Part shown: piece after piece, positions 7,270 to 30,937 of the stretch
Numbering within the stretch: the stretch's first letter is position 1
Layout: each line of letters starts with the position of its first letter
Assembly (NCBI GenBank): GCA_903906305.1
Contig: CAIVJR010000005.1
Location: 83,667 to 147,666, forward strand
Origin: an uncultured bacterium
GTDB lineage: Bacteria; Patescibacteriota; Dojkabacteria; SC72
Direction: 5' to 3'
Length of the DNA: 64,000 nucleotides
Translations under genes and position numbers: made by a program
The notes under the pieces: generated by a model
Told to the model about the DNA's origin: nothing
What the model saw: only the letters and a program-made list of their open reading frames with translations
The model's database searches: none

Positions 7270-8091
7270 TTATTCAACACGCACAAACACTTGCATTAGG
7301 TTGTCGTAATCCAAGATTGGGGAAACAAATGCAGTTTTGTATGTACTTGCGGGGTTACTTGAAAGTGCTACCACATATCCTAAGGCATAGAATCCTCCAA
7401 CTTTTGAGTCATTAATATATACCATGTCACCATCGACTACTTCGGAGTTCATGGCTATATTTTCAATCATTATACCCTCTGCAGAGCCACTAACTACCCC
7501 GCTACTTAGAATATTGGTATTAACGTTTCCATCCTGACCAACTTTAAGTACAACCACTTCCAAATGTGAATTCCCATCTGATGGTAACCTTACAGTGCTT
7601 CCCTTCAAGTCAACACTCGACACTATCCCAACAAAGATATTTCCGACAGTAACCACATCTCCCTGCTGTAATCCAGATTCACTTCCTTGATCAATGGCCA
7701 AAGTATCTACATTGTCATCTCGTAATGTATTGGCTAGTACATACTTTGCCTCCCTATTCCCCAACGCTATCTGTTTTTTTAATGCTTCATTCTCATTTTT
7801 AAGAATGACATAGTTGGAGTACTGGGCTTCCTTGTCGTATGAAGCTATTTTCAAGTCATTGAACTCTTTTCTAAAGTTTCCGAGATTAACGAATGTTTGG
7901 AAATATTCTTTAACCTTCGAACCTGCAATATTGGCTTGAAAAGATGTTGGTTCAAATACAAAAGAGAGTGCATTTCTCACACCTTTCATTCCACTTAACC
8001 CATCCAGAAGAAGAAGTGTAATCGCTAAAAGCAAAGAGAAATATACTACAATGTTGTTGTTTTGTCCTTTGGTAGTATTGTTTTTCATCAA
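7270..8091 (-). CDS. mreC: rod shape-determining protein MreC
   Basis: 273 aa, N-terminal TM, coiled coil, beta-rich C-terminal domains. Position after mreB. Confidence 0.75.
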   Translation of the reverse strand: MMKNNTTKGQNNNIVVYFSLLLAITLLLLDGLSGMKGVRNALSFVFEPTSFQANIAGSKVKEYFQTFVNLGNFRKEFNDLKIASYDKEAQYSNYVILKNENEALKKQIALGNREAKYVLANTLRDDNVDTLAIDQGSESGLQQGDVVTVGNIFVGIVSSVDLKGSTVRLPSDGNSHLEVVVLKVGQDGNVNTNILSSGVVSGSAEGIMIENIAMNSEVVDGDMVYINDSKVGGFYALGYVVALSSNPASTYKTAFVSPILDYDNLMQVFVRVE

Positions 8092-8098
8092 AGTATTA

Positions 8099-9154
8099 TT
8101 AAACTAACTCATTCCAAGATCTTTGGACTCTTTCAAGTAGTTCGATGTGGTCTAACATCAATGCGGTTCCTCTTGCTACTGCTGAAAGCGGATCATCTAC
8201 TATTTTTACTGGAAGATTTAACTCCTCTGCCCAGAATGTATCCAATCCTTTTATCAATGCTCCACCACCTGTTAAATGTAATCCTGAGGTTAACAAATCT
8301 TTTAGTAATTCTGGTGGAGTATCTTCAATTGCATCTTTAACTGCTTCGGTAATCTGATATATGGAGGTCATGATGGCTTCTCTTACCTCTACACTACTAA
8401 GCTCGACTGTCTTTGGAAGTCCCGTTAGAAGATCCCTACCCTGTACAGACATCTTAGTTTCCTTTTTTAGTGGCATTGCTGAACCTATGGCAATTTTTAC
8501 GTCTTCAGCGCTTCGCTCACCTATGAGGACATTGTATTTTTCTCTTACATAGTTAACGATATCTTGATCCATTTCATCTCCCGCAATTCTCAAGGTATTA
8601 TCTACAACAATATCTCCAAGTGAGAATACTGCAATGTCAGAAGTACCTCCTCCAACATCTACAATCATACTTCCAGAGGCATCTTCTACCGGTAACCCTG
8701 CTCCAATGGCTGCTGCCATTGATTCTTCAACTATGAATACTTCTCTCGCTCCAGCTGTTTTTACCGCATCGATAACGGCTTGTCTTTCTACTTCAGTTAC
8801 CGAAGATGGGACGCCAACGATTACTCTTGGTCTTGGAAGTTTAAATGAATTTCCAAAGTAGGAATGTGCTCGGTGTATGAAGTGATGGATCATGGCTTGG
8901 GTAGTATCAAAGTCTGAGATAACTCCATCTTTGAGTGGTCTCACTGCTGCAATGTTTGCAGGGGTTCTACCAATCATTTGTCTAGCTTCTTTACCCACAG
9001 CGAGTACTGTTTTAGTTCTTTTGTCTATTGCCACAACTGAAGGTTCGGAGACTACGATGCCGTGGTTACGCATATATACCAAGGTATTTGCAGTACCCAA
9101 GTCAATTCCCAAATCATATGTTAGTAGTTCCCAGATTGAATCAAAAATTTTCAT
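8099..9154 (-). CDS. mreB: actin-like rod shape protein MreB
   Basis: 351 aa with MreB phosphate-binding motifs (GIDLGTANTLVY, DVGGGTSDIAV). Confidence 0.9.
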   Translation of the reverse strand: MKIFDSIWELLTYDLGIDLGTANTLVYMRNHGIVVSEPSVVAIDKRTKTVLAVGKEARQMIGRTPANIAAVRPLKDGVISDFDTTQAMIHHFIHRAHSYFGNSFKLPRPRVIVGVPSSVTEVERQAVIDAVKTAGAREVFIVEESMAAAIGAGLPVEDASGSMIVDVGGGTSDIAVFSLGDIVVDNTLRIAGDEMDQDIVNYVREKYNVLIGERSAEDVKIAIGSAMPLKKETKMSVQGRDLLTGLPKTVELSSVEVREAIMTSIYQITEAVKDAIEDTPPELLKDLLTSGLHLTGGGALIKGLDTFWAEELNLPVKIVDDPLSAVARGTALMLDHIELLERVQRSWNELV

Positions 9155-9254
9155 AGACTGATAGTATACAACTAGATATCCTTGATTCTAACATGTAAAA
9201 AAAAAGAACACGAGTGTTCTTTTATATATTTTCACCTAATTTGAATTGAGGGAA

Positions 9255-9479
9255 TTATGCTTCTTTTTCTTCTACTCCCTTTTGTAATCTCTTGTAGCAT
9301 TTCATACATATAGTGACGTTTTTAACAACTCCGTCAACTTCTAAGTCTATACTTCTAAGATTTGGTTTAAACTGTCTAACAGTGTGTGGTGCCTTATATC
9401 TCCAACCCACTGAGTGCTTGTGTTGGATACTTCGACCTGCTATCGTAGATTTTGTACAAATAAAACATTCTTTTGACAT
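9255..9479 (-). CDS. rpmB: 50S ribosomal protein L28
   Basis: From internal Met MSKECFICTKSTIAGRSIQHKHSVGWRYKAPHTVRQFKPNL, the L28 pattern including the PNL motif and a Cys pair. Confidence 0.75.
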   Translation of the reverse strand: MSKECFICTKSTIAGRSIQHKHSVGWRYKAPHTVRQFKPNLRSIDLEVDGVVKNVTICMKCYKRLQKGVEEKEA

Positions 9480-9549
9480 AACGGAGGTATTATAAACTAA
9501 AATCTGTTTTATTGTCAAAGATTTTGTGACATATATTATATAATAGATT

Positions 9550-10176
9550 ATGGAAGGTTTAAACGCAGAGACAATTTATTGGATTATACTTGCAGTTCCA
9601 ACTATACTTATTGCTTCTACAGTACACGAATATGCACATGGTTGGGCAGCTTACAAGCTTGGAGATCCTACTGCAAAAGCTGCTGGTAGACTTACATTAA
9701 ATCCACTTAAACATATCGACCCTATTGGTGCGTTATGTATGATTTTGTTTAGATTTGGGTGGAGTAAGCCGGTTCCAATTAATGAGTATAATTTTGAAAG
9801 ACGAGAAGTGGATACTGCACTCACTGCATTAGCTGGACCTGTATCTAATATATTGCTTGCACTATTAACCGCACTTGTTAATTTAATATTTAAGCCTGAT
9901 CCTAGTTCTATATTTGCAATCATATTAATGGTTTTTGCATCTATTAATATTTCATTGGCTGTATTCAATCTCCTCCCTATCCCACCTTTAGATGGACATA
10001 AGATAGTGAGAGCGTTGCTTCCAAAGAAGCTTAGGTATTACTGGGAGAAGCTAGAAAAGTTCTCTATCATTATAATTTTGATATTTATTTTGCCTATCTC
10101 TCCACTATCGGCCTGGACTTCTACCTTTTTAAGCGGCACCATAACGAAACTATTATCACTACTAGGTTTCTTATAG
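9550..10176 (+). CDS. site-2 protease family (peptidase M50) membrane metalloprotease
   Basis: HEYAHGW (HExxH) in TM1 and a NLLPIPPLDGHKI (LDG) motif. 208 aa, polytopic. Confidence 0.75.
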   Translation: MEGLNAETIYWIILAVPTILIASTVHEYAHGWAAYKLGDPTAKAAGRLTLNPLKHIDPIGALCMILFRFGWSKPVPINEYNFERREVDTALTALAGPVSNILLALLTALVNLIFKPDPSSIFAIILMVFASINISLAVFNLLPIPPLDGHKIVRALLPKKLRYYWEKLEKFSIIIILIFILPISPLSAWTSTFLSGTITKLLSLLGFL

Positions 10177-16450: not shown

Positions 16451-16807
16451 ATGTGTTATAAAGTAGGACAAGAATTAGTACTAAAGCTAATCGTTGCAAG
16501 AGAGTATGGCAATTGTGCACACTACACACAAGTGGGTGGACACGGTCCAGATTTTCTGGTCCTCCCAGACAAAACGATGAAAGCCTGCAATTCAGATCCC
16601 AACCTCTTTTATCATGAAAGAGAAGAATATGTTTTAATCCATGGAATTAAAATTCCGTTGGAATCGGGATTTGAAAAAGTAACTGATAACTCTCGAAAGG
16701 TTGTTTCAAAAGGTGCAAAGTTCTCTATCACCTTGATTCTTTACAAACAAACAGCCCCAGAAAAAGAATCTGCTACTTTCAGAATTAAGTCGGTTAGTCT
16801 GGCTTAA
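16451..16807 (+). CDS. orphan hypothetical protein (118 aa) inserted between rplA and rplJ
   Basis: Intact ORF preceded by aaaggcggag RBS-like sequence. No recognisable motif. GC above neighbours. Confidence 0.4.
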   Translation: MCYKVGQELVLKLIVAREYGNCAHYTQVGGHGPDFLVLPDKTMKACNSDPNLFYHEREEYVLIHGIKIPLESGFEKVTDNSRKVVSKGAKFSITLILYKQTAPEKESATFRIKSVSLA

Positions 16808-16857
16808 CGTTACTCATTATTGAATTAGACTTTCTTAGGAACAAAATAGACAGAGGG

Positions 16858-16936
16858 TGCGCTAATAGTCGGATTACCTGAAGGTAACTCGAGAACCATT
16901 CAGGTTCACTATTATTAACAATATCTATTAGCGCGC
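16858..16936 (+). ncRNA. candidate structured RNA / nested hairpin element in the intergenic region
   Basis: Perfect 10-bp outer stem gcgctaatag / ctattagcgc (16859-16868 / 16925-16934) enclosing an inner 7-bp stem acctgaa / ttcaggt (16876-16882 / 16899-16905). It sits in a 255-nt non-coding gap. Confidence 0.3.
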
Positions 16937-17062
16937 TCTCAGCACCATCCTATTTATCACAATATATCTTTACAATTCCATTTCTATAGGATAGAATATC
17001 TAGGCAACAAGTATACCGTTGCACCTTTCAAACCAAAAGAATATCTGTAGTTAGGGAGAAAC

Positions 17063-17563
17063 TTGATGGACACAACAATTCTTGACGTTGAAAAATCCGT
17101 AGAACTAGAAACACAGCAAGAAATAGATTACTCTGGAAGTGACGGAGATCCGTTAATTCCATGGGAATGTCTATGTGAAGAACATCAAAGAAACAAAAAA
17201 TCCCACAGGTGGCACAAATCCTCCATGACCATAATCTCCGTAAGTGAGATTGATAAAAAGCATGTGAGAGTACATACTCCCAAGGGAGTATATATTTGCC
17301 GAATCACAAAATTCGACCAATATAAGGTTATAAGGGTTGTACGAACCAAAAAATCCTTTAAACCAAAAGATCCTCCCATTGAACTAGAAGATGAATTCCT
17401 CCCTGTCGTTATCGCCGAATGTGAGTTCTTGGAAGACAATTGGAAGGAGGTCCTTGCAGAGCAGAATCGGGAACAAAATCCCCAAGGAGAACAGCAAACA
17501 CTTAGAGTTATCTCTCCTGAAGCATTCAAAGCTGCAATGGACAAACGACAACCCAAAGCTTAA
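17063..17563 (+). CDS. orphan hypothetical protein (166 aa) inserted between rplA and rplJ
   Basis: Intact ORF with charged, Cys/His-containing N-terminal segment (WECLCEEHQRNKKSHRWH). No recognisable family. Confidence 0.4.
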   Translation: MMDTTILDVEKSVELETQQEIDYSGSDGDPLIPWECLCEEHQRNKKSHRWHKSSMTIISVSEIDKKHVRVHTPKGVYICRITKFDQYKVIRVVRTKKSFKPKDPPIELEDEFLPVVIAECEFLEDNWKEVLAEQNREQNPQGEQQTLRVISPEAFKAAMDKRQPKA

Positions 17564-19078: not shown

Positions 19079-19174
19079 GGGTGTTAGATATTTATTAACT
19101 CCCATCGACAAATACACCCCAAATTAAGTATAATCTAACCAGAATCTGCCTTAATTTAATACACATATATTTCA

Positions 19175-19849
19175 ATGACCTATACACCTTTTACTCAATG
19201 GATGATTACGACTGGAGTACCACAACAAGTATTGGAATTGCTACTAGCTGTAATGATTGTAGCAACAATTGTAAGCATAGCTAGATATATAATTGGATCT
19301 AAAACATATGGAATATATGCACCAATAATATTGGCAATCGCATACTCATATACAGGTTTAAGATATGGATTAGCAATAACCTTGATAGTGATTTTGACTA
19401 CCCTACTCTCATACACCATACTACGAAGAGTACGTATGCATTACATAGCTAGAATAGCAGTAAATTACTGTCTGTTAGCTATAATGTTAGTAGTCTTCTT
19501 CATAGTCATAGGACAATTTGGTTTTGGTTTAGACAATATGGCAAATATCTCTGGACTTGCAGCAATATCAATTGCAGCACTTTCAGACTTCTTCATAAAA
19601 CAATATGTAAAGAAATCATTTAAATCTTCTGTCTTGATCCTCTTTAGCACTGTTTTCATTGCCACACTCGGATGGTTTGTCATAACCCGAGATGTCATAA
19701 CAACATATTTCTTAAACAACCTTTGGATTGTTCCAATCTTAATCATATTGAATATCCTCATTGGGCAGTTTACTGGCCTTAGAATCAAAGATCTCTTTAG
19801 ATTTAAATCAGTTATTCAGAATAAGGATAAAGATAATGTTCAGAAATAG
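19175..19849 (+). CDS. 7-TM membrane protein (7TM_transglut-like, no transglutaminase domain) that is the first gene of the ATP-grasp operon
   Basis: 224 aa with seven predicted hydrophobic helices. Its 3' end overlaps the start of the next gene by 14 nt. Confidence 0.6.
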   Translation: MTYTPFTQWMITTGVPQQVLELLLAVMIVATIVSIARYIIGSKTYGIYAPIILAIAYSYTGLRYGLAITLIVILTTLLSYTILRRVRMHYIARIAVNYCLLAIMLVVFFIVIGQFGFGLDNMANISGLAAISIAALSDFFIKQYVKKSFKSSVLILFSTVFIATLGWFVITRDVITTYFLNNLWIVPILIILNILIGQFTGLRIKDLFRFKSVIQNKDKDNVQK

Positions 19850-21293
19850 GATAAAAGATGTATTAGGACTAAACAGACGTAATCAAGAATACGTTCGTCC
19901 ATACAACCACCCAAAATCTAAAGCGTTAGCAGATAATAAGATTGCTACAAAAAAGCTTCTTGCAAAGGAAGGTATCAACACATCTGAGGTATACAAACTC
20001 ATTAAAAATCGTAAACAACTAGCCTTCTTAGATTGGGAATCATTACCAAAAAGTTTTGTAATCAAACCTAATCAAGGTACTGGTGGAAATGGAATTCTAG
20101 TAATCTATGGTAGAAAGAGGGGCGAATTAGCATGGATAAGGCCAGGCGGAGAAGTATTAAGTAAAAAAGATCTCTCCTTACACATTGAGAATATCCTCGA
20201 AGGAAGATTTTCAATGGGTGAAAGAAGCGATATCGCAATAATTGAAGAAAGAGTTAGAACTGATTCATTCCTAAAACAATACTCATACAAAGGTGTACCC
20301 GATATTAGAATCATATGTTTCAATCTCGTCCCCATTATGGCAATGATGCGAATACCTACCAAACGATCCAACGGTACTGCAAATCTACATTCTGGAGCTA
20401 TATGTACCGGTATAGACATAGCAACAGGCATAACCACCTACTCTATGCATATGAATAGCAAATCATTGTTGAGCGATACATATGAGATGATAGATAATAC
20501 TCAAGATTTGAAGATTAACAAAAAGCTTTCAGGTGTTCAGATACCTGATTGGGACAAGATCTTGGATATTGCAGTAAGATGCCAAAGAGCAAGTAAGCTT
20601 GGCTATACAGGTGTCGATATAGCATTAGACGCAGACAAAGGCCCTATCGTTTTTGAATTAAATGCTAGACCTGGCCTTGGAATCCAAGTCGCAAATCAAG
20701 CGGGTTTAAGATGGAGATTAGAAAAAGTAAAAGGATTGGAAGTGAAGAGTATTAAACACGGTATAAGGGTAGCGAAGAATCTGTTTGGTGGAGAAGTAGA
20801 AGACAGTATTGAAGCTATTAGTGGAAGAAAGGTTGTTAACATCAACGAGAAAATAACCCTGTATTACAAATCATACAAAGAAGGTAGCAAAAATGAGAAT
20901 AAAGACAGAGAGATTACTACCGCATTTGTAGATACAGGAGCTATAACCTCCCGTATCTCTCGAAGCTATGTATCCAGAATGGGATATTTCGAAACCATGA
21001 GACAGTTTGACTATCTAAAATGCCCTAAGAACTTCCTCGCTTTTAAGGATGCACAAGAATACATAGACGAATATAGTAAAAACATGACAGAGGATGCATA
21101 CATCATACGTTTAGCTAAAATCTTTGAGGATGGGCAAATAGTTGTCCGACCTGTTATCATTGTTAAAGTAAGAATATCAGGCGAAATACGTGATCTTGAA
21201 ATGATCGTAACTGAAGATAGTACACACTCTGTCACATTAGGAAGAAACGACCTCAGAGACTATTTAATTGATACAAGTAAAACATTTAAATAA
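19836..21293 (+). CDS. alpha-L-glutamate-ligase-related ATP-grasp protein (TIGR02291/RimK-related N-terminus) with a C-terminal DTGA retropepsin-like domain
   Basis: Start at MFRNRIKDVLGLNRRNQEYVRPYNHPKS...ADNKIATKKLLAKEGI, the characteristic G-x-N-R-R-N...Y-N N-terminus of the RimK-related family. ATP-grasp core (FVIKPNQGTGGNGILV ... DIALDADKGPIVFELNARPGL). C-terminal ~150 aa contain FVDTGAITS (20922-20948). Confidence 0.8.
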   Translation: MFRNRIKDVLGLNRRNQEYVRPYNHPKSKALADNKIATKKLLAKEGINTSEVYKLIKNRKQLAFLDWESLPKSFVIKPNQGTGGNGILVIYGRKRGELAWIRPGGEVLSKKDLSLHIENILEGRFSMGERSDIAIIEERVRTDSFLKQYSYKGVPDIRIICFNLVPIMAMMRIPTKRSNGTANLHSGAICTGIDIATGITTYSMHMNSKSLLSDTYEMIDNTQDLKINKKLSGVQIPDWDKILDIAVRCQRASKLGYTGVDIALDADKGPIVFELNARPGLGIQVANQAGLRWRLEKVKGLEVKSIKHGIRVAKNLFGGEVEDSIEAISGRKVVNINEKITLYYKSYKEGSKNENKDREITTAFVDTGAITSRISRSYVSRMGYFETMRQFDYLKCPKNFLAFKDAQEYIDEYSKNMTEDAYIIRLAKIFEDGQIVVRPVIIVKVRISGEIRDLEMIVTEDSTHSVTLGRNDLRDYLIDTSKTFK

Positions 21294-22282
21294 TGAAAAC
21301 ATACGAAGAATATCTAAAAGAAGCAGGAAATGTCCATTTAGCATACTATGTCGAAGCTGCTGACATCTTAGGAATCAAATATTCCATCGTTGTTAGAAGC
21401 CTAATTGCAAAGTTCGAAGTTGAAGACAAGCATTGGTTCATTATAAATACTGTTACACCCCTAACCTCCTCCCCAAGTGCTACCATTTCAAAACGAAAGA
21501 ACCTTACCAATATGGTATTAAGCTCATATGGTGTAGATGTCCCAAAGCAAGAGGGATTAACAAGCCCCATTGATGCTATAAAATTCTTTAATAAGTATAA
21601 AAACATAGTCATAAAGCCTGCTCAACAGCTTGGTGGAAAAGGTATTACCCTACTTCCAGAGACAGAAGACCAGGTTATATCTGCTTTCAACGAAGCATTC
21701 GAGAAAGATAGATCAAAAGGAGAAATTAAGGTATTGGGAGAAGAATTCATCAAAGGAGAAAACTATCGATTCTTAGTAGTTGGCGAAAACGTTGTTGGAA
21801 TAGTATGGAGAAAGGCCCCAATAGTTATCGGCAATAGCAAAAATACTATAAGAGAACTAATTGATACATCAAACAAAGAGCGTAGCCTCCTCGTTCTCAA
21901 ATCTATTCCCATAGATTCAGAAGTACAAACTAGATTAAAAAATGCTGACCTCACATTAGATTCAATTCCAGACGAAGGCCAAGTTATAACCCTTAGATAC
22001 AATTGTAATCTGACTACTGGTGGTACTACAGAAGAGTGTGCTTCCATTGTAGATCCATACTACAAGGAGCTCGCTGTAAAGGCCGTTAAGGCTCTTGATT
22101 TAGAATTCGGGGGTGTAGATATCATTGCAGAGGATATAACTAAACCAGGGAAGTGTGGAATTAATGAAATCAACTACAATCCTGGATTAAGATTACATTA
22201 CAAAGCTGACAAGGGTGAGAAGGTTAAGGTCGCTGTCCCTATTATGGAATATATTAGAGATAAGTATACAAATAAATTATAA
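21293..22282 (+). CDS. stand-alone cyanophycin-synthetase G-domain-like ATP-grasp ligase
   Basis: GENYRFLVVGENVVGIVWRKAPIVIGNSKNTIRELID ... NCNLTTGGTTEECASIVDP ... GVDIIAEDI matches CphA ATP-grasp motifs. TAATG start/stop overlap with the upstream gene. Confidence 0.75.
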   Translation: MKTYEEYLKEAGNVHLAYYVEAADILGIKYSIVVRSLIAKFEVEDKHWFIINTVTPLTSSPSATISKRKNLTNMVLSSYGVDVPKQEGLTSPIDAIKFFNKYKNIVIKPAQQLGGKGITLLPETEDQVISAFNEAFEKDRSKGEIKVLGEEFIKGENYRFLVVGENVVGIVWRKAPIVIGNSKNTIRELIDTSNKERSLLVLKSIPIDSEVQTRLKNADLTLDSIPDEGQVITLRYNCNLTTGGTTEECASIVDPYYKELAVKAVKALDLEFGGVDIIAEDITKPGKCGINEINYNPGLRLHYKADKGEKVKVAVPIMEYIRDKYTNKL

Positions 22283-22292
22283 GATAAACATT

Positions 22293-23984
22293 ATGAGTAA
22301 CGTGCAAGTATTACAAGGCCTAAATCTAGATTCAGAGATATCTGTCATAAAAATTAATGTACATAAGACCGATACTATCGTTAGATATCTTGAACTTCTT
22401 AAAAATTTTCACCCAATATTCATGCGTGAATACAAATTTGAAAATGACATCTTAAGCATTCACACAATGATAACCTCGTTGTGGAGAGAACTTGGAGAAA
22501 TAATAATCAAACTTTCAGAAGGAAAGATCGATTACGAAGAAGCAAGAAAACACACTCTTGAAGAAGTCCTTAAACAACGAGTAGCCTCTATGTCTACTAT
22601 TCCTCTAATCTTTTTTGCAAACAAAATGAAATATGAGGTAACACCAACGCTATTAGAAGACGAAAGGATAAAATACAATACAGGGCCCAATAGAATATAT
22701 ACTTTAGGCGTAGGTCGTAATTCCCAAATTATATATTCTATATCCTCTAGTAAAGATTCTAAAGAAGCAAAAGAAATTCAAAGAGATAAATATCTTACAA
22801 ACCTTATGATTCAGCGATTAGGTCTCCCTATTCCAAAATGGCAAGTCCTAGACAATATATCACAGATTGAAGAAGTCTGGAGTAGCTATGAAAAACCTGT
22901 CGTCATAAAACCAACAGGTCTTACAGGTGGGCATGGTGTTGTAGTTGGTATAGAAACGCTAGAGAAAGCAAAGGAGGCATTTAAATTTGCAAAAGAAGCA
23001 ACTCAGGATAGAATCAGAGAAGAATGGCAGCAAAAGATCATGATACAAGAACAAATCTCAGGTGAAGATTACAGGCTTCTCGTTATAAATGGCCATCTAG
23101 AAATCGCAACCAAGCGTATTCCAGCCTTCATCATAGGAGATGGCAAGCATACAATTGAAGAATTGATCGATATAACCAATACAGATCCTCGAAGAGATGT
23201 TACTAACCCTACTCATACATTAAAACCTATTAAGATTGATGATCCTCTAAAGTCATATATCAAAGATCAGAAATTAACCCTTACCTCTATTCCTAAGAAA
23301 GAGCAGAAAGTTAATGTGAGAAAGGTTGCAAGCATGAGCCAAGGCGGCATAACCGAAGATTTTACGGATAAGGTAAGCCCAGAAATTAAAGCAATTGTAG
23401 AGAGCATCGCATCATCGATTCATGCATTTACTCTAGGGGTCGATGTCATGTGTAAAGATCTTTCCAAACCATTAACAAAAGACAACGGTGCAATACTAGA
23501 AGTGAACACAATGCCTGAAGCATATCTTAATACCTATCCTGTCATTGGTGAATCCCGAGAATACGTATTCGACAAATATATAAAAGCTCTTTTAGAAGGC
23601 AATAACACAAAGCAGATAGTAATTGTAGGTAATAGCACAGAAGATGTACCTACTCTACTAAGAAAGAAATCGATCTTTGGATCATACCTCAAACAAGATG
23701 CCGTTATCGGAGAATACAAAGATGGAGAGATTAGAATTAATGGGTTGGATATAAATAAGGGCCTAGAGAAATGGAAAGCAATAGAAGGCCTTAAAGTAAA
23801 TGCATCTTTAGATGCAATGATCATACATCATAGAAATGTAGAAGAGGTTAGAGAAACAGGCTTAGGATTTAATAAAATTGACCTTTTAATGGTAGAATCT
23901 AAATATTTTGAAGATAGAGAATTTAAAAAAGCTATCCGAAGATACCAAATGAAAGGATTAATATCTAAAATAAAGAAATTCTAA
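22293..23984 (+). CDS. CphA-like ATP-grasp ligase with an N-terminal ~200-aa domain and a C-terminal ~120-aa extension, no Mur-ligase (M) domain
   Basis: Internal Met MSNVQVL at 22293. GEDYRLLVINGHLEIATKRIPAFIIGDGKHTIEELID ... MSQGGITEDFTDKV ... GVDVMCKDL is close to the CphA G-domain. Confidence 0.75.
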   Translation: MSNVQVLQGLNLDSEISVIKINVHKTDTIVRYLELLKNFHPIFMREYKFENDILSIHTMITSLWRELGEIIIKLSEGKIDYEEARKHTLEEVLKQRVASMSTIPLIFFANKMKYEVTPTLLEDERIKYNTGPNRIYTLGVGRNSQIIYSISSSKDSKEAKEIQRDKYLTNLMIQRLGLPIPKWQVLDNISQIEEVWSSYEKPVVIKPTGLTGGHGVVVGIETLEKAKEAFKFAKEATQDRIREEWQQKIMIQEQISGEDYRLLVINGHLEIATKRIPAFIIGDGKHTIEELIDITNTDPRRDVTNPTHTLKPIKIDDPLKSYIKDQKLTLTSIPKKEQKVNVRKVASMSQGGITEDFTDKVSPEIKAIVESIASSIHAFTLGVDVMCKDLSKPLTKDNGAILEVNTMPEAYLNTYPVIGESREYVFDKYIKALLEGNNTKQIVIVGNSTEDVPTLLRKKSIFGSYLKQDAVIGEYKDGEIRINGLDINKGLEKWKAIEGLKVNASLDAMIIHHRNVEEVRETGLGFNKIDLLMVESKYFEDREFKKAIRRYQMKGLISKIKKF

Positions 23985-23985
23985 T

Positions 23986-24933
23986 ATGAAATACCTCATC
24001 ATAGACAAAAGACAGCGTGTAGAAGTAGCTACAATGGGTGAAATACCTACAGGATCAGCAAGATTAGTAGAAGAATTAGATAAAAAAAATATTCCTCATG
24101 ATTTTGCATATAACGATGAAATAGAGTTCTTGTTTCATAATGGTTCCACGGTTATAAAAGTGGCAGGACATGACGTAACAGAGTACAGCAACATCATTCT
24201 TAGAGGTCATTCCTTAGGTGACGAACGTGAGTATCAATACAAGAGATTCATCATAGACTACGTTGATCAATATAATAGAGACAACCCAGAAAAAAAAGTG
24301 ATCATTCAGAATTCTAAGGCAATCAAGAATCTTCCATATTACAATAAGATAGCCTTTGCAATGCTATGTTCAAAAAATAACCTCCCCTACTTTAATACAT
24401 ATTTCCATACCAATGGGGAATATTTAAAAGATAGAGATATGTTAAAGGAATATCCATTGATTATCAAAGAATACTCGGGAATGAATAGAACTGAAATGAT
24501 TGAGGGTAAAGAGAAGATCAAGAAGAATGTGTTTAAATTAGAGAAAGATGAGGATTACAAGCAAGAAAATCTTGATGGACAAGATCTTTCCCATTTCTTC
24601 ATACAGGAATTTTCTGATGCTGGTGAAGATTACAGAATATTTGTTAAGTTAGGGAAAGTAATAGCCGGATGGAAAAGAAAGGCTGTTAATGGCTTTATGA
24701 CTGTAAGCAAGGGTGAGTACGAGATGTACAATACTCCTAACGAGGAGATAACTGAGATTGCTGAGAAGATGGCATCCGTATTAGAAGCTGACTTTATGGC
24801 CGTAGACTTTATGTATATGAATGGGAAGGCATGTATACAAGAGATAAGCTTCCATCCTGGATATAAGGCATATGAGACTAAGATTGAGGGAGAGCCAGTG
24901 AATATAGCTGAAGCTATAGTTACTGCTTTTTAA
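23986..24933 (+). CDS. RimK-like ATP-grasp ligase
   Basis: PLIIKEYSG ... FIQEFSDAGEDYRIFVKLGKVIAGWKRKA ... DFMAVDFMYMNGKACIQEISFHPG follows the RimK/glutathione-synthetase pattern. Start is 1 nt after the upstream stop. Confidence 0.7.
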   Translation: MKYLIIDKRQRVEVATMGEIPTGSARLVEELDKKNIPHDFAYNDEIEFLFHNGSTVIKVAGHDVTEYSNIILRGHSLGDEREYQYKRFIIDYVDQYNRDNPEKKVIIQNSKAIKNLPYYNKIAFAMLCSKNNLPYFNTYFHTNGEYLKDRDMLKEYPLIIKEYSGMNRTEMIEGKEKIKKNVFKLEKDEDYKQENLDGQDLSHFFIQEFSDAGEDYRIFVKLGKVIAGWKRKAVNGFMTVSKGEYEMYNTPNEEITEIAEKMASVLEADFMAVDFMYMNGKACIQEISFHPGYKAYETKIEGEPVNIAEAIVTAF

Positions 24934-27211
24934 GTCCTAGCTTCTCAAACATATTATTACTATCACCATTGTGATCATGTATTGCTTGGGCTTTGTATCT
25001 AGGTAGGACGAATATAAACTTACTTCCCTTACCTATTTCACTCTCTACTCGAATATCACCACCCATCTTACGTATAAGGTTGAAGGTTACGAATAATCCC
25101 AAACCAGTACCACCAGGTCTTACAATCTCTAGCTTCTCACCAACCTCTATGCTGGAGTTAATGTGATTCCCTGCCCTAAAGAATTTCTGTCCCAACTTAG
25201 GTAGCTCCTCTGCACTAATACCATAACCAGTATCAATAATGGATACTTCTACCCAGTTATCATCAAATCTATTCTCTATGGTCACACTACCTCTCTCTGT
25301 ATACTTAACAGCATTACTTATTAGGTTGTTCAATATCTCTACCACTCTAGCCCTATCTGCATATACATGAGGAGTATCTAATTGCATATTATTAATAATT
25401 GGAAGATCTTTTTCCATAGCATCTCTCTCATTCCCATGTATAGCCATATCTACCTCATTCTTAATATCTACCTCTTCAGGATCTATGACTATCTTATCCC
25501 CCTCTAATTTAGCACTACTCAGTAATGTATTAATTAGTTTTATTTCATTCTCTACAGCCATCTTAATCCTATCTACATACCTCTTGTATGCTTCAGGATC
25601 ACTCTGTATATCCCCTGTGAACTTCTCTAAGAGCTGTGCATTGAGTTTAACTATGGTAGCAGGTGTTCTTAACTCATGTCCCATTATATCAATCATATCG
25701 TTCTCTTTCTTACGAGCTTCCTGTAGTTCTTGAATCTTAACCTGAAGTTCTGCCGTCTGCGCATCAACCTTATATTGAAGGGTCTGATTGAAGGATTGAA
25801 GCTGCTTGTAAAGAAGGGCCTTATTAACAGAAATATGGAACTGGCTATATATACGATCCCAAAGATCTAATTCATCAATCTTGTACATCTGATTATTAGG
25901 TAGGTCTTGTATGAAAAGAACCCCTATTAGCTCACTCCCAGATACAATTGGATAGACTATTTGAATTTTAGATAACTCTAACAGATACAACAAATTAGAA
26001 TACTCTCGATATTCTAATGCATCTTTGTTACTCAAATACTCTAGCTCAGATCTGGAAAGAGATTTTAATCTTCCTACTGTAGTCGTTTCTTTATTCCAAT
26101 ACACTGGAATCTCTACAAAAATTTTATTAAGGTTTTCTATCTTCCAATCTCCATGAGTAAAACGATATGATTTTGTATTAACAGAGTCGTAAAGATATAT
26201 TTGAGCTTTGTTTGCAGAAGTATTTTGGCATATATAGCTCAAAGTCTTGTTACATATATCAGAAAGTTCTTGCTCAAAGTTAAGAAGTTTAATAAAGCCT
26301 TCACCCTTGTTTCTAAGGATCTGTTTTTCTGACAGGAAAATGTTGGCAACAGCATCTATAACTATTTTAAAAATAAGTGCTAACAAAAACGCAATTATGT
26401 AAAACAATATTTTAGGAATTTCCAACTGCTCAATTAGTGGGAAAACAACTACCAAAGAAACTACAAATACGATAGATGGAATAATGTAGAGAGATAAACT
26501 TCGCAAAATACCCCGTATCACAATCCCAAATCGTTGGAACCGTGTCTGTGTTAGACCATACGAAATAATAAGGTTTGCGATTGAGAATACCACAGGCCCA
26601 AACCAAATATATTCATAAACACCAAAGTATGGAGCTATGATATTAGCAGGGAAAGAACCCACTACTGTTAAAACATTTCCTATAATTAGATATTTTTGCT
26701 GTTCTTTCTCTATAAATGATAATGCTTTATACCCTCTTAAAGTTTTGTAAACATTAACTGCAAATACGATTGTTAACCATGCCATCCAGACCAGATATGC
26801 TTTACCAACTATTATATAGTTATTCCCTTCTAAGACAATTCTTTCTATAAAATTGTTTGTAAAGAATATTTCGTAAAGGAGAAAAAGAAATCCCCCTACT
26901 ACAAACAGAGCAAATAATAAATTGATCTTCTTTCTACGAAGATAATACGTAGAGAAAATATAATGGAACAGACCAATTGATATTGATGATAAATAGATAA
27001 TATCCGCCCAAAGTTTAGCGGTACTTAATGTATCTGTTAATAGAAAAGATACTGTTGAGAAAGCCCAAACCGGTCCAGCTATTATTCCCAAAATTCCTAA
27101 GAAAAAATATGCCTTGTTCTTTGGTTCTTTGAGAAAGGTAACTAAAGGCCCTATTAAGGAGGTAAACCCTAGTATTACAACAAACATATATAAAGTGTTA
27201 TCCCATATCAT
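24920..27211 (-). CDS. sensor histidine kinase with an N-terminal ~9-TM sensor domain
   Basis: 763 aa: nine hydrophobic helices, a cytoplasmic linker, H-box DIMGHELRTPATI and HATPase_c (GGTGLGLFVTFNLIRKMGGDIRVESEIGKGSKF). No response regulator adjacent. Confidence 0.8.
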   Translation of the reverse strand: MIWDNTLYMFVVILGFTSLIGPLVTFLKEPKNKAYFFLGILGIIAGPVWAFSTVSFLLTDTLSTAKLWADIIYLSSISIGLFHYIFSTYYLRRKKINLLFALFVVGGFLFLLYEIFFTNNFIERIVLEGNNYIIVGKAYLVWMAWLTIVFAVNVYKTLRGYKALSFIEKEQQKYLIIGNVLTVVGSFPANIIAPYFGVYEYIWFGPVVFSIANLIISYGLTQTRFQRFGIVIRGILRSLSLYIIPSIVFVVSLVVVFPLIEQLEIPKILFYIIAFLLALIFKIVIDAVANIFLSEKQILRNKGEGFIKLLNFEQELSDICNKTLSYICQNTSANKAQIYLYDSVNTKSYRFTHGDWKIENLNKIFVEIPVYWNKETTTVGRLKSLSRSELEYLSNKDALEYREYSNLLYLLELSKIQIVYPIVSGSELIGVLFIQDLPNNQMYKIDELDLWDRIYSQFHISVNKALLYKQLQSFNQTLQYKVDAQTAELQVKIQELQEARKKENDMIDIMGHELRTPATIVKLNAQLLEKFTGDIQSDPEAYKRYVDRIKMAVENEIKLINTLLSSAKLEGDKIVIDPEEVDIKNEVDMAIHGNERDAMEKDLPIINNMQLDTPHVYADRARVVEILNNLISNAVKYTERGSVTIENRFDDNWVEVSIIDTGYGISAEELPKLGQKFFRAGNHINSSIEVGEKLEIVRPGGTGLGLFVTFNLIRKMGGDIRVESEIGKGSKFIFVLPRYKAQAIHDHNGDSNNMFEKLGLKKQ

Positions 27212-28700
27212 TGTTCTTTGGCAGTTTTAATTCAAAAAATCTTGTTAAACTCATTTTCCTCTCTTCGTATGGTGGGTAATAAGAGCCTTCAATTCCTGTT
27301 AGCTCCAAGGTTTTCATTCCTGTCTTCCTTAGATCTTGAGCGATCTTTGGTGCTAGCTTCTTAGTTATTGCCCCAGCCTTCTTTGCCCCCATTAGATATC
27401 CCCAGAAACTGTTAAAACCTAATTTTTTTCTAACTTCAGCTAGAAGTTCATACTGCATAGTCGAAGATGGCGAAAAGAGTTGATTGATAAACGAAATCCC
27501 ATTTTTTTCTTTAATACTATATTCTGTATCTCCCAACTTAACATTTTTCTCAAAATTTTCTTTCTTTGTGAAGAAAATTGTCTTCAACATGCTCCCTGTA
27601 GAAAGATCAACTTGCATTCCAGGATCCAATGTACAATCTTGAAAAAGTCCTCCTGGTTTAACTCTTTTAACCATCTCGTCTACGACCTCAAAGTGAGTCT
27701 TCTCATCAAAATAGTTTATCCCGTTATCCGAAAATACAAAATGGTATGTATCATCACCCTTCTGCATAGATTCCAGAGCTGTTTCAAAATATATCGTTAC
27801 CCCCTCAAAATTCTTTTCTTTTTGCCCACTATCCAAAACAATTCGTGTAGGGATACCTCGCAAGGTTAACAACGTAGCTGCACAAATAACAGATTGAAGA
27901 GAGTTATCGGCAGAATGAAACTCAATTTTCTTTCCAGTCTCTTTAAGAGCCTCGTACATTAATGCTGTTGTGATGCCCGCACCGGTACATAATTCCTTAA
28001 CTTTGATTACTTCTTCTCCAGGAAAAGCCTCTTTCATATGATCTCTTGCCTTGGGAGCCATAATCCTTTCTAAACGATATGATTCATAGGCCAAAAGTTT
28101 GTTTAATATCCCTTCAATATTTGATTCCTCCCAATGCATAGATCTTTCCGTACTTTCATCTACGCCATTAGAAAAAAGTTTAGTTGTTTCTTTAAGTAAT
28201 TTTGGTATTAATTGATTAGACATTATTCGAATAGTTGCAGGAGCAAAAACAAATGGATTTTTTGGGTTCATGTATTCCCATTCAGCATAATTGGCATACT
28301 TTTTATGCACATCCATAAAAACAGGGACAAACTCATTTTGAGCATCTCGGACTTCAGCACTTATCTCTGTTGGAATCTTAATATACAAACCGTATTCGTC
28401 TGATCCTAACATCTTTAAATCAAGATCTTTTGGATCCTGAAGGTTAGAAATTTGGGCGTTTTCTTCATTTGTAGCTATTTGTGTCAAATAATTTGTTAAT
28501 GAAGGTAATTGCGAGATATTCTCTTCTGACTGTATTGGCTCATCTGCTGGGACTACAACTTCAGTAGTTACTGGAACGTTTGAAATTTCTTCCTGGGGTG
28601 GTTGCAAAGGAGAATTGGTTTCAACTTGCAAAGACATACCTTCACTCTCTAGTGGTGGTTTGTTATCCATTCTTATTTGGGCAATATTATGTATATACAT
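27198..28700 (-). CDS. class I SAM-dependent methyltransferase-fold protein with N- and C-terminal extensions
   Basis: 500 aa. VKELCTGAGITTAL (motif I-like G-x-G-x-G), VKPGGLF (post-I), FVFSDNGINY. Function unknown. Confidence 0.5.
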   Translation of the reverse strand: MYIHNIAQIRMDNKPPLESEGMSLQVETNSPLQPPQEEISNVPVTTEVVVPADEPIQSEENISQLPSLTNYLTQIATNEENAQISNLQDPKDLDLKMLGSDEYGLYIKIPTEISAEVRDAQNEFVPVFMDVHKKYANYAEWEYMNPKNPFVFAPATIRIMSNQLIPKLLKETTKLFSNGVDESTERSMHWEESNIEGILNKLLAYESYRLERIMAPKARDHMKEAFPGEEVIKVKELCTGAGITTALMYEALKETGKKIEFHSADNSLQSVICAATLLTLRGIPTRIVLDSGQKEKNFEGVTIYFETALESMQKGDDTYHFVFSDNGINYFDEKTHFEVVDEMVKRVKPGGLFQDCTLDPGMQVDLSTGSMLKTIFFTKKENFEKNVKLGDTEYSIKEKNGISFINQLFSPSSTMQYELLAEVRKKLGFNSFWGYLMGAKKAGAITKKLAPKIAQDLRKTGMKTLELTGIEGSYYPPYEERKMSLTRFFELKLPKNNDMG

Positions 28701-28723: not shown

Positions 28724-29893
28724 CTATATCCCCGCCTTCTCAAATATTTCTAACCATTTATCTTTGTTTGGTACGTTATTTGGCATAGGTAATAACCCAT
28801 CCTCTACCCATTCACACTGTTTAAATGTAATCTTTCCCGCATACAATTGGTTATACAATCTAGGATTCTCTTCCAATTTCTTCTTAACTTTTCTAAATCC
28901 TCTAAAATATGCAATATCTTTACAATATATTCCTCGATCATGTGTATCCCCCAATCCTCTTTTAACACTATATGTAACATCAAATGCAGAATACTTAGGT
29001 AAAACAGCCAAAAGAACATTGTAAAGCTCTCTAAAGGAAAGATCTTCACCTAGATATACAGCCCATGTTAATGCTGCTTTGTTCTTCAACCATTTCTCTG
29101 TAAGAAGACCCATATTACTCTCATTCCATGTAGCCAAACCCTCCTCAACATCCAAATATTCAGGAAGATTAGCATTACTCAAAGCATTGAACCCACATTT
29201 CATACCATTTTCCGCTCTTAAAGCATGGGTCCCAACCTCGTGTACTAAAGTTTTTCGTAATTTGAAATTACTTCTTTCAATATTGGAATCCACCAAAATC
29301 TCTTTTCGTTTAATACCAAGCTTAATTCCATTTTTTGAAATATTTGCAGATTCATTTACAGTCCAACCATCTAACCCTAGCTCTCTGAAAGTAATGTCAA
29401 ATACTTTTTCAATATCATCATGATACAAAATCTTCCTCCTATTTATATCATCCTCCTTTACCACGTTGTAGTTATCTAACTTTCCTCTCAGTACCCTAGC
29501 CGCATTCCTAAATAGCTTGTCACTAGGTTTACCATACCTATGTACAGAAATATCAGTAACCTCTTCGTTATTACCAACCGCATACATAAGGTCGCTGGCT
29601 TCCTTTTTTGAATCAATTAACTGAAGGTAGAAATCAGAAATGCGAGGATCCACATCAACAATCTCTTTAACATTAGAAAGTTTCTTCAATATCTCTTTGT
29701 TATTATTCTTTACAATCCTGTATTCAAATACCGGATTGTATATCTCGCTATTAAAGAATTTCTTCTTCTCTGCTTCTAAGTTTGTAGGTGTAAATACTAA
29801 TGCAGTCGGTATCCTCAAATCACCAAGTAGCTTAGTAACTTCATCAAGCCTTAATGTCTTCTTTTTTCTAGCAAATATTTCCATGGGATACAT
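28724..29893 (-). CDS. DUF1704 / QEGLA-motif family protein (MATCAP-like HExxH metallopeptidase)
   Basis: 389 aa with HEVGTHALR (HExxH, 29223-29243) and a downstream EEGLA (29131-29151), the family-defining Q/EEGLA motif. Confidence 0.7.
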   Translation of the reverse strand: MYPMEIFARKKKTLRLDEVTKLLGDLRIPTALVFTPTNLEAEKKKFFNSEIYNPVFEYRIVKNNNKEILKKLSNVKEIVDVDPRISDFYLQLIDSKKEASDLMYAVGNNEEVTDISVHRYGKPSDKLFRNAARVLRGKLDNYNVVKEDDINRRKILYHDDIEKVFDITFRELGLDGWTVNESANISKNGIKLGIKRKEILVDSNIERSNFKLRKTLVHEVGTHALRAENGMKCGFNALSNANLPEYLDVEEGLATWNESNMGLLTEKWLKNKAALTWAVYLGEDLSFRELYNVLLAVLPKYSAFDVTYSVKRGLGDTHDRGIYCKDIAYFRGFRKVKKKLEENPRLYNQLYAGKITFKQCEWVEDGLLPMPNNVPNKDKWLEIFEKAGI

Positions 29894-29917: not shown

Positions 29918-30937
29918 CTATCTCCTAAAATCTCTGTTAAATGAGAACTTCCTTGAGCCCTCTTCTATGAGGTCTAAAGCAATACCAGTACCTTTTACTA
30001 CACAAAAAAGAGGATCATCTGCGACATGAGCAGGCACACCTGTAGCACGAGAGAAAAGTTTGTCTAAATTTCTTAGCAAGGATGTACCACCACTCATGAC
30101 CATACCACGATCCATAATGTCAGCAGATAGCTCTGGAGGAGTCTTTTCTAATACTGCTTGTATACTCTTAATTATACTCCTCAATGGCCACTCTACAGCT
30201 TTAGCAATATCATTGGAATTAACAATTACTGATTTAGGCATACCAGCTCCAACATCTCTTCCCCTTACTTCCATCTCCCTTGGATCTTTTACCTCTAATG
30301 CACTCCCTATCTTTATCTTTATCTTCTCAGCTGTCTGTTCACCAATTAAAAGGCCTTTCTTTTTACGCATGTATGAGATTATGGCCTCATTAATAGCGTC
30401 ACCTGCTACTCTTAGAGATTCATATTCTACTACTCCGTCAAGGGATATAACCGCGACTTCGGTGGTACCACCACCCATATTTATAATCATATTTCCAGAT
30501 GATGTATTTATTGGCATCTCCGCACCCAATGCAGCTAACAGAGGTTCTGGGAGTAATGTAACATTCCTTGCACCAACCGCATTTGCAGCTTTAAGTACAG
30601 CTCTTTCTTCTACAGAAGTAATACCTGCAGGTACACTAATTACAACATCAGGTTTGAAAAATCTTCCTTTTCCCAATGCTTTGTCAAAGAAGTATCTAAG
30701 TAAAGCTTCAGTTACTCGAGAATCAGCTATGACACCATTACGAAGAGGTCTTTTGGCAACGATATTATCTGGAGTCTTACCAATCATTTCTTTAGCTTCC
30801 ATACCTACAGCTATGACAGTGAAGTTGTTTACATCTATGGCCACAACGGTAGGTTCAGTTAAGACAATCCCTTCCCCTTGGACAAATACAACTGAGTTAG
30901 CTGTTCCTAGGTCTATACCTAATTTCTTTACAAACAT
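29918..30937 (-). CDS. second MreB/Mbl-family actin-like protein (paralog)
   Basis: 339 aa (GIDLGTANSVVFV ... NMGGGTTEVAVIS). Clearly distinct from the mreB at 8.1-9.2 kb. Confidence 0.85.
   Translation of the reverse strand: MFVKKLGIDLGTANSVVFVQGEGIVLTEPTVVAIDVNNFTVIAVGMEAKEMIGKTPDNIVAKRPLRNGVIADSRVTEALLRYFFDKALGKGRFFKPDVVISVPAGITSVEERAVLKAANAVGARNVTLLPEPLLAALGAEMPINTSSGNMIINMGGGTTEVAVISLDGVVEYESLRVAGDAINEAIISYMRKKKGLLIGEQTAEKIKIKIGSALEVKDPREMEVRGRDVGAGMPKSVIVNSNDIAKAVEWPLRSIIKSIQAVLEKTPPELSADIMDRGMVMSGGTSLLRNLDKLFSRATGVPAHVADDPLFCVVKGTGIALDLIEEGSRKFSFNRDFRR

Follow-up and report, generated by a model that had tools for sequence, protein, structure and literature searches.

The 64,000-nucleotide stretch of DNA analysed here (the window) comes from an uncultured bacterium of the Dojkabacteria (GenBank assembly GCA_903906305.1, contig CAIVJR010000005.1, positions 83,667 to 147,666, forward strand). 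Judged by homology and catalytic residues, it carries a cluster of four predicted ATP-grasp ligases with intact catalytic residues, two predicted peptidases and a predicted seven-transmembrane (7TM) protein. Two of the ligases resemble the cyanophycin synthetase CphA: G1, a stand-alone G domain, and NGm, in which an N domain and a G domain are followed by the vestige of an M domain. We tentatively read the locus, with a confidence a little short of even, as a split, multi-enzyme relative of CphA that would make a non-ribosomal, Asp/Glu-containing oligopeptide or poly(amino acid) and not canonical cyanophycin. A preliminary description of the DNA had covered G1, NGm and a RimK-like ligase (21293-24933), and its coordinates and gene calls for that segment were borne out. 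To these parts we add the 7TM protein, a fusion of an RloC-like ligase to a retropepsin, and a MATCAP-like carboxypeptidase. The operon begins upstream of G1, with the 7TM gene and the ligase::retropepsin gene on the same strand.

G1 and NGm are homologues of the CphA G domain, as had been proposed. Against NCBIfam cyanophycin synthetase, G1 scored 204 bits (3.7e-60, profile positions 167–471) and NGm 247 bits (3.4e-73, positions 183–567). Both scored lower against GshAB (168 and 157 bits, respectively) and against NAGGN synthetase, and their CphA scores lie far above those for Ddl, GshB and RimK, so that a closer relationship to Ddl or GshB is not what we found. Neither reached the CphA equivalog cut-offs of 850 (TIGR02068) and 877 (NF010623) bits, the scores being 202/204 for G1 and 243/247 for NGm. 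By sequence, the solved structures nearest to the two proteins are those of CphA1 and CphA2. With 32% identity between them, G1 and NGm are each about as close to the other as to CphA1. The homologous block DYRLL...KRIP...GDGK.TI.ELI, followed by TTGG/SQGG, is present in both, although the motif expression first written for it fails when taken literally, its spacing being off by 1–2 residues.

Functional residues were taken from TeCphA1 (PMC9427784) and StCphA2 (PMC10273328), mapped through HMMER alignments and checked for conservation across 69–80 orthologues per ligase family. The ATP-binding Lys, the catalytic Arg and the Mg ligands are kept in all four ligases, with the ExN motif of the RimK-like enzyme as the exception. 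In G1, K69, K108, R159, R173, N239, D276, E292, N294, G298 and R300 are invariant in 78 orthologues; these correspond to K220, K261, R309, R323, N394, D431, E450, N452, G456 and R458 of TeCphA1. They include the four contacts to the incoming Asp (R323, N394, G456 and R458 of TeCphA1; R173, N239, G298 and R300 of G1). Since every residue that binds the incoming Asp in TeCphA1 is kept, it is reasonable to suppose that G1 adds Asp. The 13-position pocket signature of G1, TKKGRRNTDENGR, agrees with that of CphA1 ([DE]KK[HQ]RRNSDENGR) and not with that of GshF (LKKFRRNSDENAH), and the N-G-R pocket recurs in the G1-like proteins of divergent lineages. Two other positions have changed. The equivalent of E215 is Thr (T64; 72/78 orthologues), and H267 of the CphA1 P-loop is Gly in both G1 and NGm. 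The AlphaFold2 (AF2) model of G1 has a predicted local distance difference test score (pLDDT) of 80.8 and its best template modelling score (TM-score), 0.74, is to Asp-bound TeCphA1 (7wae). A choice between CphA and GshF on fold was attempted for G1 and failed (both ~1e-20). Because the fold comparison is indecisive, the CphA assignment of G1 rests on hidden Markov model (HMM) scores and pocket residues.

CphA2 polymerises preformed beta-Asp-Arg dipeptides into cyanophycin with its G domain alone; in CphA1 the M domain adds Arg. NGm appears to be built like CphA2. In a Foldseek search with an AF2 model built on 28 orthologues (pLDDT 81.5), the top PDB match was Gloeothece CphA2 (7ta5), at E 1.1e-33 over the full length (587 alignment columns, TM-scores 0.67/0.65), followed by CphA1 enzymes, Stanieria CphA2 and GshF, and then by Ddl, LysX and RimK at ~1e-9. 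The modelled layout is that of CphA2: an N domain of ~130 residues, a G domain and a 127-residue vestigial M domain. The preliminary description had named the N-terminal domain as possibly that of CphA, which is borne out, and had put it at ~200 residues, which is too long; the NGm family profile aligns from its position 9 to some CphA-length proteins. The HxxEH of the Cx19HxxEH metallopeptidase motif was sought in the NGm N domain and is not present. Cx19HxxEH is the N-domain peptidase motif of primer-independent CphA1, and CphA2 also lacks it (PMC9262961). At the other end, HMMER aligned NGm residues 437–484 to residues 480–531 of AbCphA1 (A. baylyi), the start of the M domain, and the PRK14016 alignment reaches profile position 567. 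In NGm the sequence GNSTED lies opposite the CphA1 P-loop, GTNGKT, in a segment that varies among NGm orthologues, and other parts of the vestige (~437–563) are invariant. Because the P-loop is replaced by the non-conserved GNSTED, NGm is predicted to lack a functional M domain, as CphA2 does. Hence the statement that neither protein has a C-terminal Mur-ligase domain stands for G1 and, as regards a functional domain, for NGm, but NGm is not devoid of M sequence.

The G domain of NGm keeps its catalytic residues and has a different pocket. K166, K206, R261, R275, D384, E403 and N405 are invariant in 80 orthologues. At the positions of N394, G456 and R458, however, NGm has S347, E409 and Y411, each invariant or present in 79/80 orthologues. 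This S-E-Y pocket is confined to the NGm subfamily, its divergent members included; the Tyr at the R458 position is common to NGm and CphA2. Mutagenesis of StCphA2 showed that D212, R308, D362, N393 and S395 are required (PMC10273328). Three of these are kept in NGm (R308, D362 and S395, as R261, D316 and S349), N393 is the invariant S347, and the equivalent of D212, whose placement presupposes 5 residues aligned without a gap, is unconserved. In CphA1 and CphA2 the Arg side chain of the primer is bound by an acidic residue, E215 and D212, respectively (PMC9427784, PMC10273328). In NGm the position equivalent to E215, residue 161, varies (K/E/N/T/D/Q). As the Arg-binding acidic residue is Thr in G1 and variable in NGm, canonical cyanophycin appears an unlikely product.

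The third ligase, described at first as a conventional RimK-like enzyme, turned out to be anything but conventional. It matches PF08443 at 6.4e-8, and its best NCBIfam models, MptN (49.8 bits) and the RimK family (47.5 bits), both fall far below cut-off; for the latter (TIGR00768) the cut-off is 143.4 bits, which the ligase::retropepsin open reading frame (ORF) at 19836-21293 also does not reach (48.3 bits). A profile of 22 RimK-like sequences found LysX/RimK in the PDB at only 3e-7 and over the C-terminal half only. Residues K161, R217, D274 and E286 are invariant. In the ExN motif, Ser replaces Asn in 72/76 main-lineage orthologues, the canonical motif being found in a divergent lineage.

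The first two genes of the operon recall the Rlo system, in which RloA is a retropepsin, RloB an inactive-transglutaminase-7TM protein reported to be 96% proteobacterial, and RloC an ATP-grasp enzyme (PMC12239564). The 7TM protein aligns to positions 311–507 of 508 in the NCBIfam RloB model, the C-terminal 7TM half; its score is 36 bits (cut-off 900), the inactive transglutaminase domain is missing, and the protein is kept at the same position in 67 loci. The RloC-like domain of the fusion scores 289.8 bits (E 2.1e-86) against TIGR02291, 'alpha-L-glutamate ligase-like', just missing the cut-off of 314.2. Across 69 orthologues this domain never varies in its ATP-binding Lys, its catalytic Arg or its D/E/N ligands for Mg. 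In the fused C-terminal domain D366-T367 is invariant (69/69), G368 is found in 62/69 and T371-S372-R373 is near-invariant. Searched with the family profile of this domain, the PDB yielded 9g59/9g58 ('putative ATP-dependent zinc protease') at 3.8e-5, in an alignment that pairs the DTG block and, at the C terminus, the LLGR..L..LID block; PF05618 was found in 16/21 members (best 4.5e-8). On these matches the domain is assigned to the RimB/RloA retropepsin family. Fused C-terminally to a ligase and without an N-terminal signal peptide, the retropepsin is presumably cytoplasmic, like RimB.

The second peptidase gene is convergent to the ligase operon. Its product scores 93.8 bits against PF08014 (Pfam cut-off 27) and 114 bits against the TIGR02421 equivalog, below the cut-off of 338.65; the HExxH residues (H217, E218 and H222) and the EEGLA motif are conserved in 65 orthologues. 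ATP-grasp enzymes and MATCAP relatives are also paired in Proteobacteria, in operons that run N-formylglutamate amidohydrolase (FGase), QEGLA, GshB-like. A Pararhizobium operon encodes an N-formylglutamate amidohydrolase, a 632-residue QEGLA protein and a GshB-like ligase, and an FGase-MATCAP fusion occurs in Vibrio. In the window a 7TM histidine kinase and a 500-residue protein are inserted between the RimK-like and MATCAP-type genes. This insertion is found only in the closest relatives of the window (L005–L008) and is absent from ~75 other loci, and both proteins were therefore rejected as core parts. No response-regulator gene lies next to that of the 7TM-receptor kinase.

A scan of species-representative genomes with family-specific peptide patterns returned 106 NGm relatives, and 80 loci were examined. 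These are labelled Dojkabacteria/WS6 or generically as uncultured bacterium, with homologues named Candidatus Dojkabacteria or candidate division WS6. The scan found the system in no genome outside Dojkabacteria-type metagenome-assembled genomes; many matches were titled 'uncultured Candidatus Saccharibacteria'. The cluster is present in ~80 Dojkabacteria species-level genomes, in the order rplJ, rplL, 7TM, ligase::retropepsin, G1, NGm, RimK-like and, on the opposite strand, MATCAP and MreB. This block was found by tblastn in nearly every contig that is long enough, down to ~43% identity (80 loci), and in ~65 loci the operon directly follows rplJ-rplL.

Three deep lineages depart from this arrangement. 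L084 keeps NGm, the RimK-like gene and the MATCAP-type gene together. L087/L088 keep all six genes, with no MreB nearby, in the order inverted rplL and rplJ, 7TM, ligase::retropepsin, G1-like, an opposite-strand gene, RimK-like, MATCAP, an extra gene and NGm-like, and in L089 the cluster consists of G1-like, RimK-like, MATCAP and NGm-like genes. Function can hence be separated from inherited gene order. As they stay clustered while order and neighbours change, G1, the RimK-like ligase, the MATCAP-type peptidase and NGm form the persistent core, the Rlo-like pair is a frequent partner and MreB is a mere neighbour. MreB had been considered as a part of the system and was rejected, its adjacency being lost in L087 and L089. 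Extra proteins lie inside the rearranged clusters, in L087 (6121-6915, minus strand, 264 residues; 9216-9701, minus strand, 161 residues) and in L089 (754-1203, plus strand, 149 residues), and could be additional components or substrates.

These parts suggest the following mechanism. G1 would use the G-domain chemistry of CphA1, in which the C-terminal carboxylate is phosphorylated and L-Asp is added through its alpha-amine. NGm would hold the growing chain on its N domain and extend it with a building block that, because its pocket is Ser/Glu/Tyr, would be something other than plain Asp. The RimK/LysX-like and RloC-like ligases would add Glu-type residues, either in-chain or on side-chain carboxylates, and so stand in for the lost M-domain activity. 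Chain length or product recycling would be set by endo-cleavage of acidic chains by the retropepsin and by C-terminal trimming by the MATCAP-type enzyme, and the 7TM RloB-like protein might couple the product to the membrane or export it, as proposed for Pseudomonas Rlo. The earlier proposal that the ligases extend a carboxyl terminus with Asp/Glu only accords with the complete Asp pocket of G1 and not with NGm, where N394, G456 and R458 are Ser, Glu and Tyr in the 80 orthologues. A more specific version, possible but doubtful, is that the disassembled synthetase makes a novel, arginine-free cyanophycin analogue, such as a poly-Asp chain that Glu-type residues lengthen or decorate. G1 would then add Asp, NGm a different unit, and the RimK-type enzymes would replace M, with the peptidases setting length and the 7TM protein delivering the product to the envelope.

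Physiological data from other bacteria bear on what such a product might do. Pseudomonas mutants that lack the three RloA proteases have defects that are suppressed when RloB or RloC is lost; RloA, whose channel is positively charged, cleaves poly-Glu tails; and the Rlo system is needed for hypo-osmotic tolerance (PMC12239564). Low salinity raises the expression of QEGLA, of its neighbour annotated as glutathione synthase GshB and of RimK by 27- to 52-fold in Photobacterium (PMC10308900). The Rlo and Photobacterium data would fit, and do not prove, a role of acidic peptides in envelope or osmotic physiology.

Several observations weigh against a split, peptide-polymerising CphA relative. The substrate assignments hang on a handful of pocket residues, and the fold of G1 fits GshF as well as it does CphA (both ~1e-20). 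The AF2 models are at their least confident in the pocket loops, with pLDDT <50 for residues 297–304 of G1 and for 345–353 and 408–414 of NGm; inferences about the pockets therefore rest on sequence. The synteny comes mostly from one phylum-level lineage, so that conservation is perhaps partly inherited gene order. The 7TM and RloC genes are not adjacent in L084 and L089, and L084 has no G1 at the locus; the functions of the two modules may be separable. Finally, the RimK/RimB and MATCAP precedents all target protein C termini, which favours the tailing of a protein.

Such tailing, in which the ligases would reversibly add Asp/Glu and another residue to the C terminus of a specific protein and the retropepsin and the MATCAP-like peptidase would trim it, is considered unlikely. 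It has precedents in RimK and RimB acting on ribosomal protein S6 and in the TTL/TTLL ligases and MATCAP acting on tubulin. Two of the ligases, the RloC-like and the RimK-like, are members of the RimK superfamily; the fused peptidase resembles RimB/RloA; RimB trims the poly-Glu tails of RpsF (PMC12239564); and MATCAP family members (PF08014) are protein C-terminal carboxypeptidases. Moreover, rplJ-rplL is adjacent in ~65 loci and is still adjacent, though inverted, in L087/L088. What speaks against tailing is that no candidate substrate emerged. Neighbouring proteins with a conserved C terminus were sought as substrates and rejected, since the tails of L7/L12, L10 and the adjacent MreB paralogue vary between species; the MreB adjacency is lost in L087 and L089, and rpsF is not in the window. 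The oligo-acidic tail on an operon target, as first suggested, thus found no target. Polymerases that act on free peptide chains have the kind of CphA N domain and CphA2-like layout seen in NGm, and the 7TM partner, together with the secreted RloA of Pseudomonas, points to an exported product. The N-G-vestigial-M architecture of NGm points to peptide-chain polymerisation at least as much as to protein tailing.

Less probable still is the synthesis or tailing of a small molecule, whether an osmolyte-type di- or tripeptide (as by NAGGN synthetase or GshF), a cofactor with a glutamyl tail (as by MptN or CofF) or a cell-wall peptide. The CphA-like ATP-grasp clade does include the dipeptide and tripeptide makers GshF and Ngg, MptN is the best NCBIfam match of the RimK-like gene, and proteobacterial MATCAP homologues lie beside N-formylglutamate amidohydrolase and GshB-like ligases; the low-salinity induction of QEGLA, its GshB-annotated neighbour and RimK (PMC10308900) and the need for Rlo in hypo-osmotic tolerance (PMC12239564) would suit such a product. 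Four ligases, an endopeptidase and a chain-anchoring N domain nevertheless exceed what a di- or tripeptide needs, a retropepsin implies chains long enough for endo-cleavage, and genes for a GNAT, an amidotransferase or a cofactor pathway are missing from the cluster. Genuine cyanophycin metabolism by split enzymes is very improbable. Here a ligase would make beta-Asp-Arg, or G1 and a further ligase would take over the G and M steps, and NGm would act as the polymerase of a nitrogen or amino-acid store. The full-length structural match of NGm to CphA2 (7ta5, E 1.1e-33), its Tyr at the R458 position as in CphA2, the CphA1 Asp pocket of G1 and source annotations reading 'cyanophycin synthetase' would agree with this reading. 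Opposed to these are the Thr in G1 and the unconserved residue in NGm where an acid should bind the Arg guanidinium, the replacement in NGm of CphA2-essential N393 by an invariant Ser and of G455 by Glu, and scores of 243 and 202 bits against the equivalog cut-off of 850. There is also no active M domain. Pfam scans of the larger ORFs in the 64-kb window found no Mur ligase or separate M domain, no cyanophycinase (S51) and no isoaspartyl dipeptidase, in line with the preliminary description as far as a separate M-domain protein is concerned.

The multi-enzyme polymerase that we favour may have fused counterparts elsewhere. A search of 1.8 billion representative proteins with the NGm profile returned 8,614 relatives. 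Next after the Dojkabacteria orthologues came four NGm-like proteins of 515–543 residues (P0251–P0254), of which the two traced, P0251 and P0252, lie in Dojkabacteria-type clusters. They were followed by proteins of 750–2,400 residues with 2–3 tandem CphA-type G domains (P0255–P0300), which scored 240–309 bits against ~200 for genuine CphA1. Some of these are fused to acylphosphatase, AMP-binding, LPG_synthase_C or TPR domains, and their pockets are varied, often with Asp at the G456 position. Their sequences suggest that multi-ligase ATP-grasp assembly lines form a wider, uncharacterised clade, in which the Dojkabacteria locus would represent a split form; were the arginine-free analogue confirmed, the multi-G-domain proteins of other bacteria would be fused versions of such an assembly line.

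No paper in the literature searched ties Dojkabacteria to cyanophycin or describes the cluster, and a search aimed at CphA-like or cyanophycin-like enzymes brought up nothing but the unrelated CphA beta-lactamase. In the source records these proteins are labelled 'cyanophycin synthetase', 'D-Ala-D-Ala ligase-like' or 'hypothetical'; the first label is probably wrong for these proteins of the candidate phyla radiation (CPR). The parts come from known families (CphA, RimK/LysX, Rlo/RimB and MATCAP). What is new is that a CphA1-type G domain stands alone, that its CphA2-like partner has a novel invariant pocket, that a ligase is fused to a retropepsin, and that all these occur together with a MATCAP peptidase in a lineage of minimal genomes. 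Cyanophycin synthetase is among the very few enzymes that polymerise amino acids independently of the ribosome and of non-ribosomal peptide synthetases, and the locus has its G domain in two separate proteins whose pockets differ from each other and are each strictly conserved. Practically all members of this reduced-genome CPR lineage (genome contigs ~0.7 Mb) have retained the cluster, which points to a product worth the cost of six genes in so small a genome. As one operon it is tractable by heterologous expression and might yield a new biopolymer or peptide modification. The locus also links the Rlo osmotic-stress operon, the bacterial MATCAP/DUF1704 peptidases and the multi-G-domain ATP-grasp proteins.

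Features of the ligase-peptidase cluster in the window (positions from the first letter of the window)
Feature	Position	Strand	Description
Promoter-like site TCGACA-18-TATAAT	19105-19134	+	sigma-70-like, 11/12 consensus match
7TM membrane protein	19175-19849	+	224 aa; PF14402 7TM_transglut 1.8e-16
RloC-like ATP-grasp domain (aa 1-324 of 485-aa fusion)	19836-20807	+	PF14397 1.5e-64
Retropepsin-like domain, RimB/RloA type (fusion aa 325-485 plus stop)	20808-21293	+	
G1	21293-22282	+	329 aa; stand-alone CphA-type G domain with CphA1-type aspartate pocket
NGm	22293-23984	+	563 aa; N domain, G domain and M vestige
NGm N domain (aa 1-131)	22293-22685	+	CphA N-domain-like
NGm G domain (aa 132-436)	22686-23600	+	ATP-grasp catalytic residues kept, nucleophile pocket changed
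NGm C-terminal 127-aa M-core vestige	23601-23984	+	P-loop absent, strongly conserved
RimK-like ligase	23986-24933	+	315 aa; divergent RimK/LysX-superfamily ATP-grasp
Lineage-specific insertion (7TM histidine kinase and 500-aa protein)	24920-28700	-	system membership uncertain
7TM histidine kinase	24920-27211	-	Pfam HisKA/HATPase_c/HisKA_7TM
500-aa protein	27198-28700	-	faint methyltransferase match only
MATCAP/DUF1704-type metallocarboxypeptidase	28724-29893	-	389 aa; PF08014 1.4e-26

From the 7TM gene to the RimK-like gene, successive genes on the same strand overlap by 14 nt and 1 nt and are then separated by 10 nt and 1 nt. The fusion starts at ATG 19836, which accounts for its 14-nt overlap with the 7TM gene, and NGm starts at ATG 22293 in all orthologues, not at GTG 22215. 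The promoter-like site lies 40 nt upstream of the 7TM gene, the first in the operon. Its position fits an operon start after rplL; it is a consensus match only, and such sites are no more frequent in the region than chance would give.

The window encodes two MreB paralogues (8099-9154 and 29918-30937, both on the minus strand). One lies in a canonical mreB-mreC-(164-aa ORF)-PBP2 cluster (4748-9154); the other immediately precedes the MATCAP-like gene, and its product is extended at the C terminus by G.R.F.FN.DFRR, which only part of the lineage conserves. Between rplA and rplJ, ORFs of 118 and 166 residues have no Pfam match (16451-17563, plus strand), and in other Dojkabacteria this gap holds different small ORFs on the opposite strand, marking a variable spot in the ribosomal protein cluster. 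Prolyl-tRNA synthetase, a single 491-residue protein in relatives, is split into a 110-residue N-terminal ORF (37944-38276) and a 345-residue ORF (36807-37844, minus strand), which could be a frameshift, a pseudogene or an assembly error. A RuBisCO large-subunit homologue of 458 residues (38308-39684, minus strand) is present in a genome with little sign of autotrophy; form II/III RuBisCO is common in CPR bacteria, where it serves nucleotide salvage. Competence or DNA-uptake genes (44309-47421 and 4045-4713, minus strand) encode a two-part ComEC (metallo-beta-lactamase and Competence), a ComEA-like HHH protein and DprA, which fits DNA scavenging. Two giant proteins of 2,624 (48164-56038, minus strand) and 2,250 residues (57138-63890, minus strand) carry Laminin_G_3/concanavalin-like and Gly_rich_2 domains and are probably surface adhesins of an episymbiont; a Fic/DOC-family gene lies between them (56022-57131, plus strand).

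Among characterised systems, CphA2 (7ta5, 8fxh/8fxi) is the closest to NGm. Both comprise N, G and a truncated inactive M domain (563 residues in NGm, ~630 in CphA2), lack the N-domain HxxEH motif and have Tyr at the R458 position of CphA1. NGm differs in its identity of only ~20–23%, in lacking the Arg-binding acidic residue, in the changes of N393 to Ser and G455 to Glu, and in a shorter M vestige (127 against ~150 residues); it also comes from a non-cyanobacterial CPR lineage and is accompanied by three other ligases and two peptidases. G1 resembles CphA1 (TeCphA1 7wae, SuCphA1 7lg5; 25–28% identity) in its ATP/Mg, Asp-contact and acyl-phosphate (R309) residues. Unlike CphA1 it is free-standing, with no N or M domain, and has Thr for E215 and Gly for H267.

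The Rlo system of Pseudomonas aeruginosa likewise places a TIGR02291-type ATP-grasp enzyme, a PF14402 7TM protein and a PF05618 DTG retropepsin side by side in one operon. In Dojkabacteria, however, the retropepsin is fused to the ligase C terminus and has no signal peptide, which makes it closer to RimB than to the secreted RloA; the 7TM protein has no periplasmic transglutaminase-like domain; and the module is co-operonic with CphA-type ligases. Proteobacterial MATCAP/QEGLA operons (such as that of Pararhizobium pPspA13a, L086) share an HExxH and EEGLA gluzincin beside ATP-grasp amidoligases. There the protein has 630–660 residues, with an N-terminal extension or an FGase fusion, whereas the Dojkabacteria enzyme is a bare 389-residue domain whose partners are CphA- and RimK-type, not GshB-type, with no FGase. 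The multi-G-domain proteins (for example P0255–P0260 and P0262), finally, are the closest non-orthologous relatives of NGm and also set 2–3 different G domains side by side. An acidic residue is common at their G456 position and none has the S-E-Y pocket; their domains are fused in one polypeptide of 750–2400 residues, whereas those of the Dojkabacteria cluster are separate proteins.

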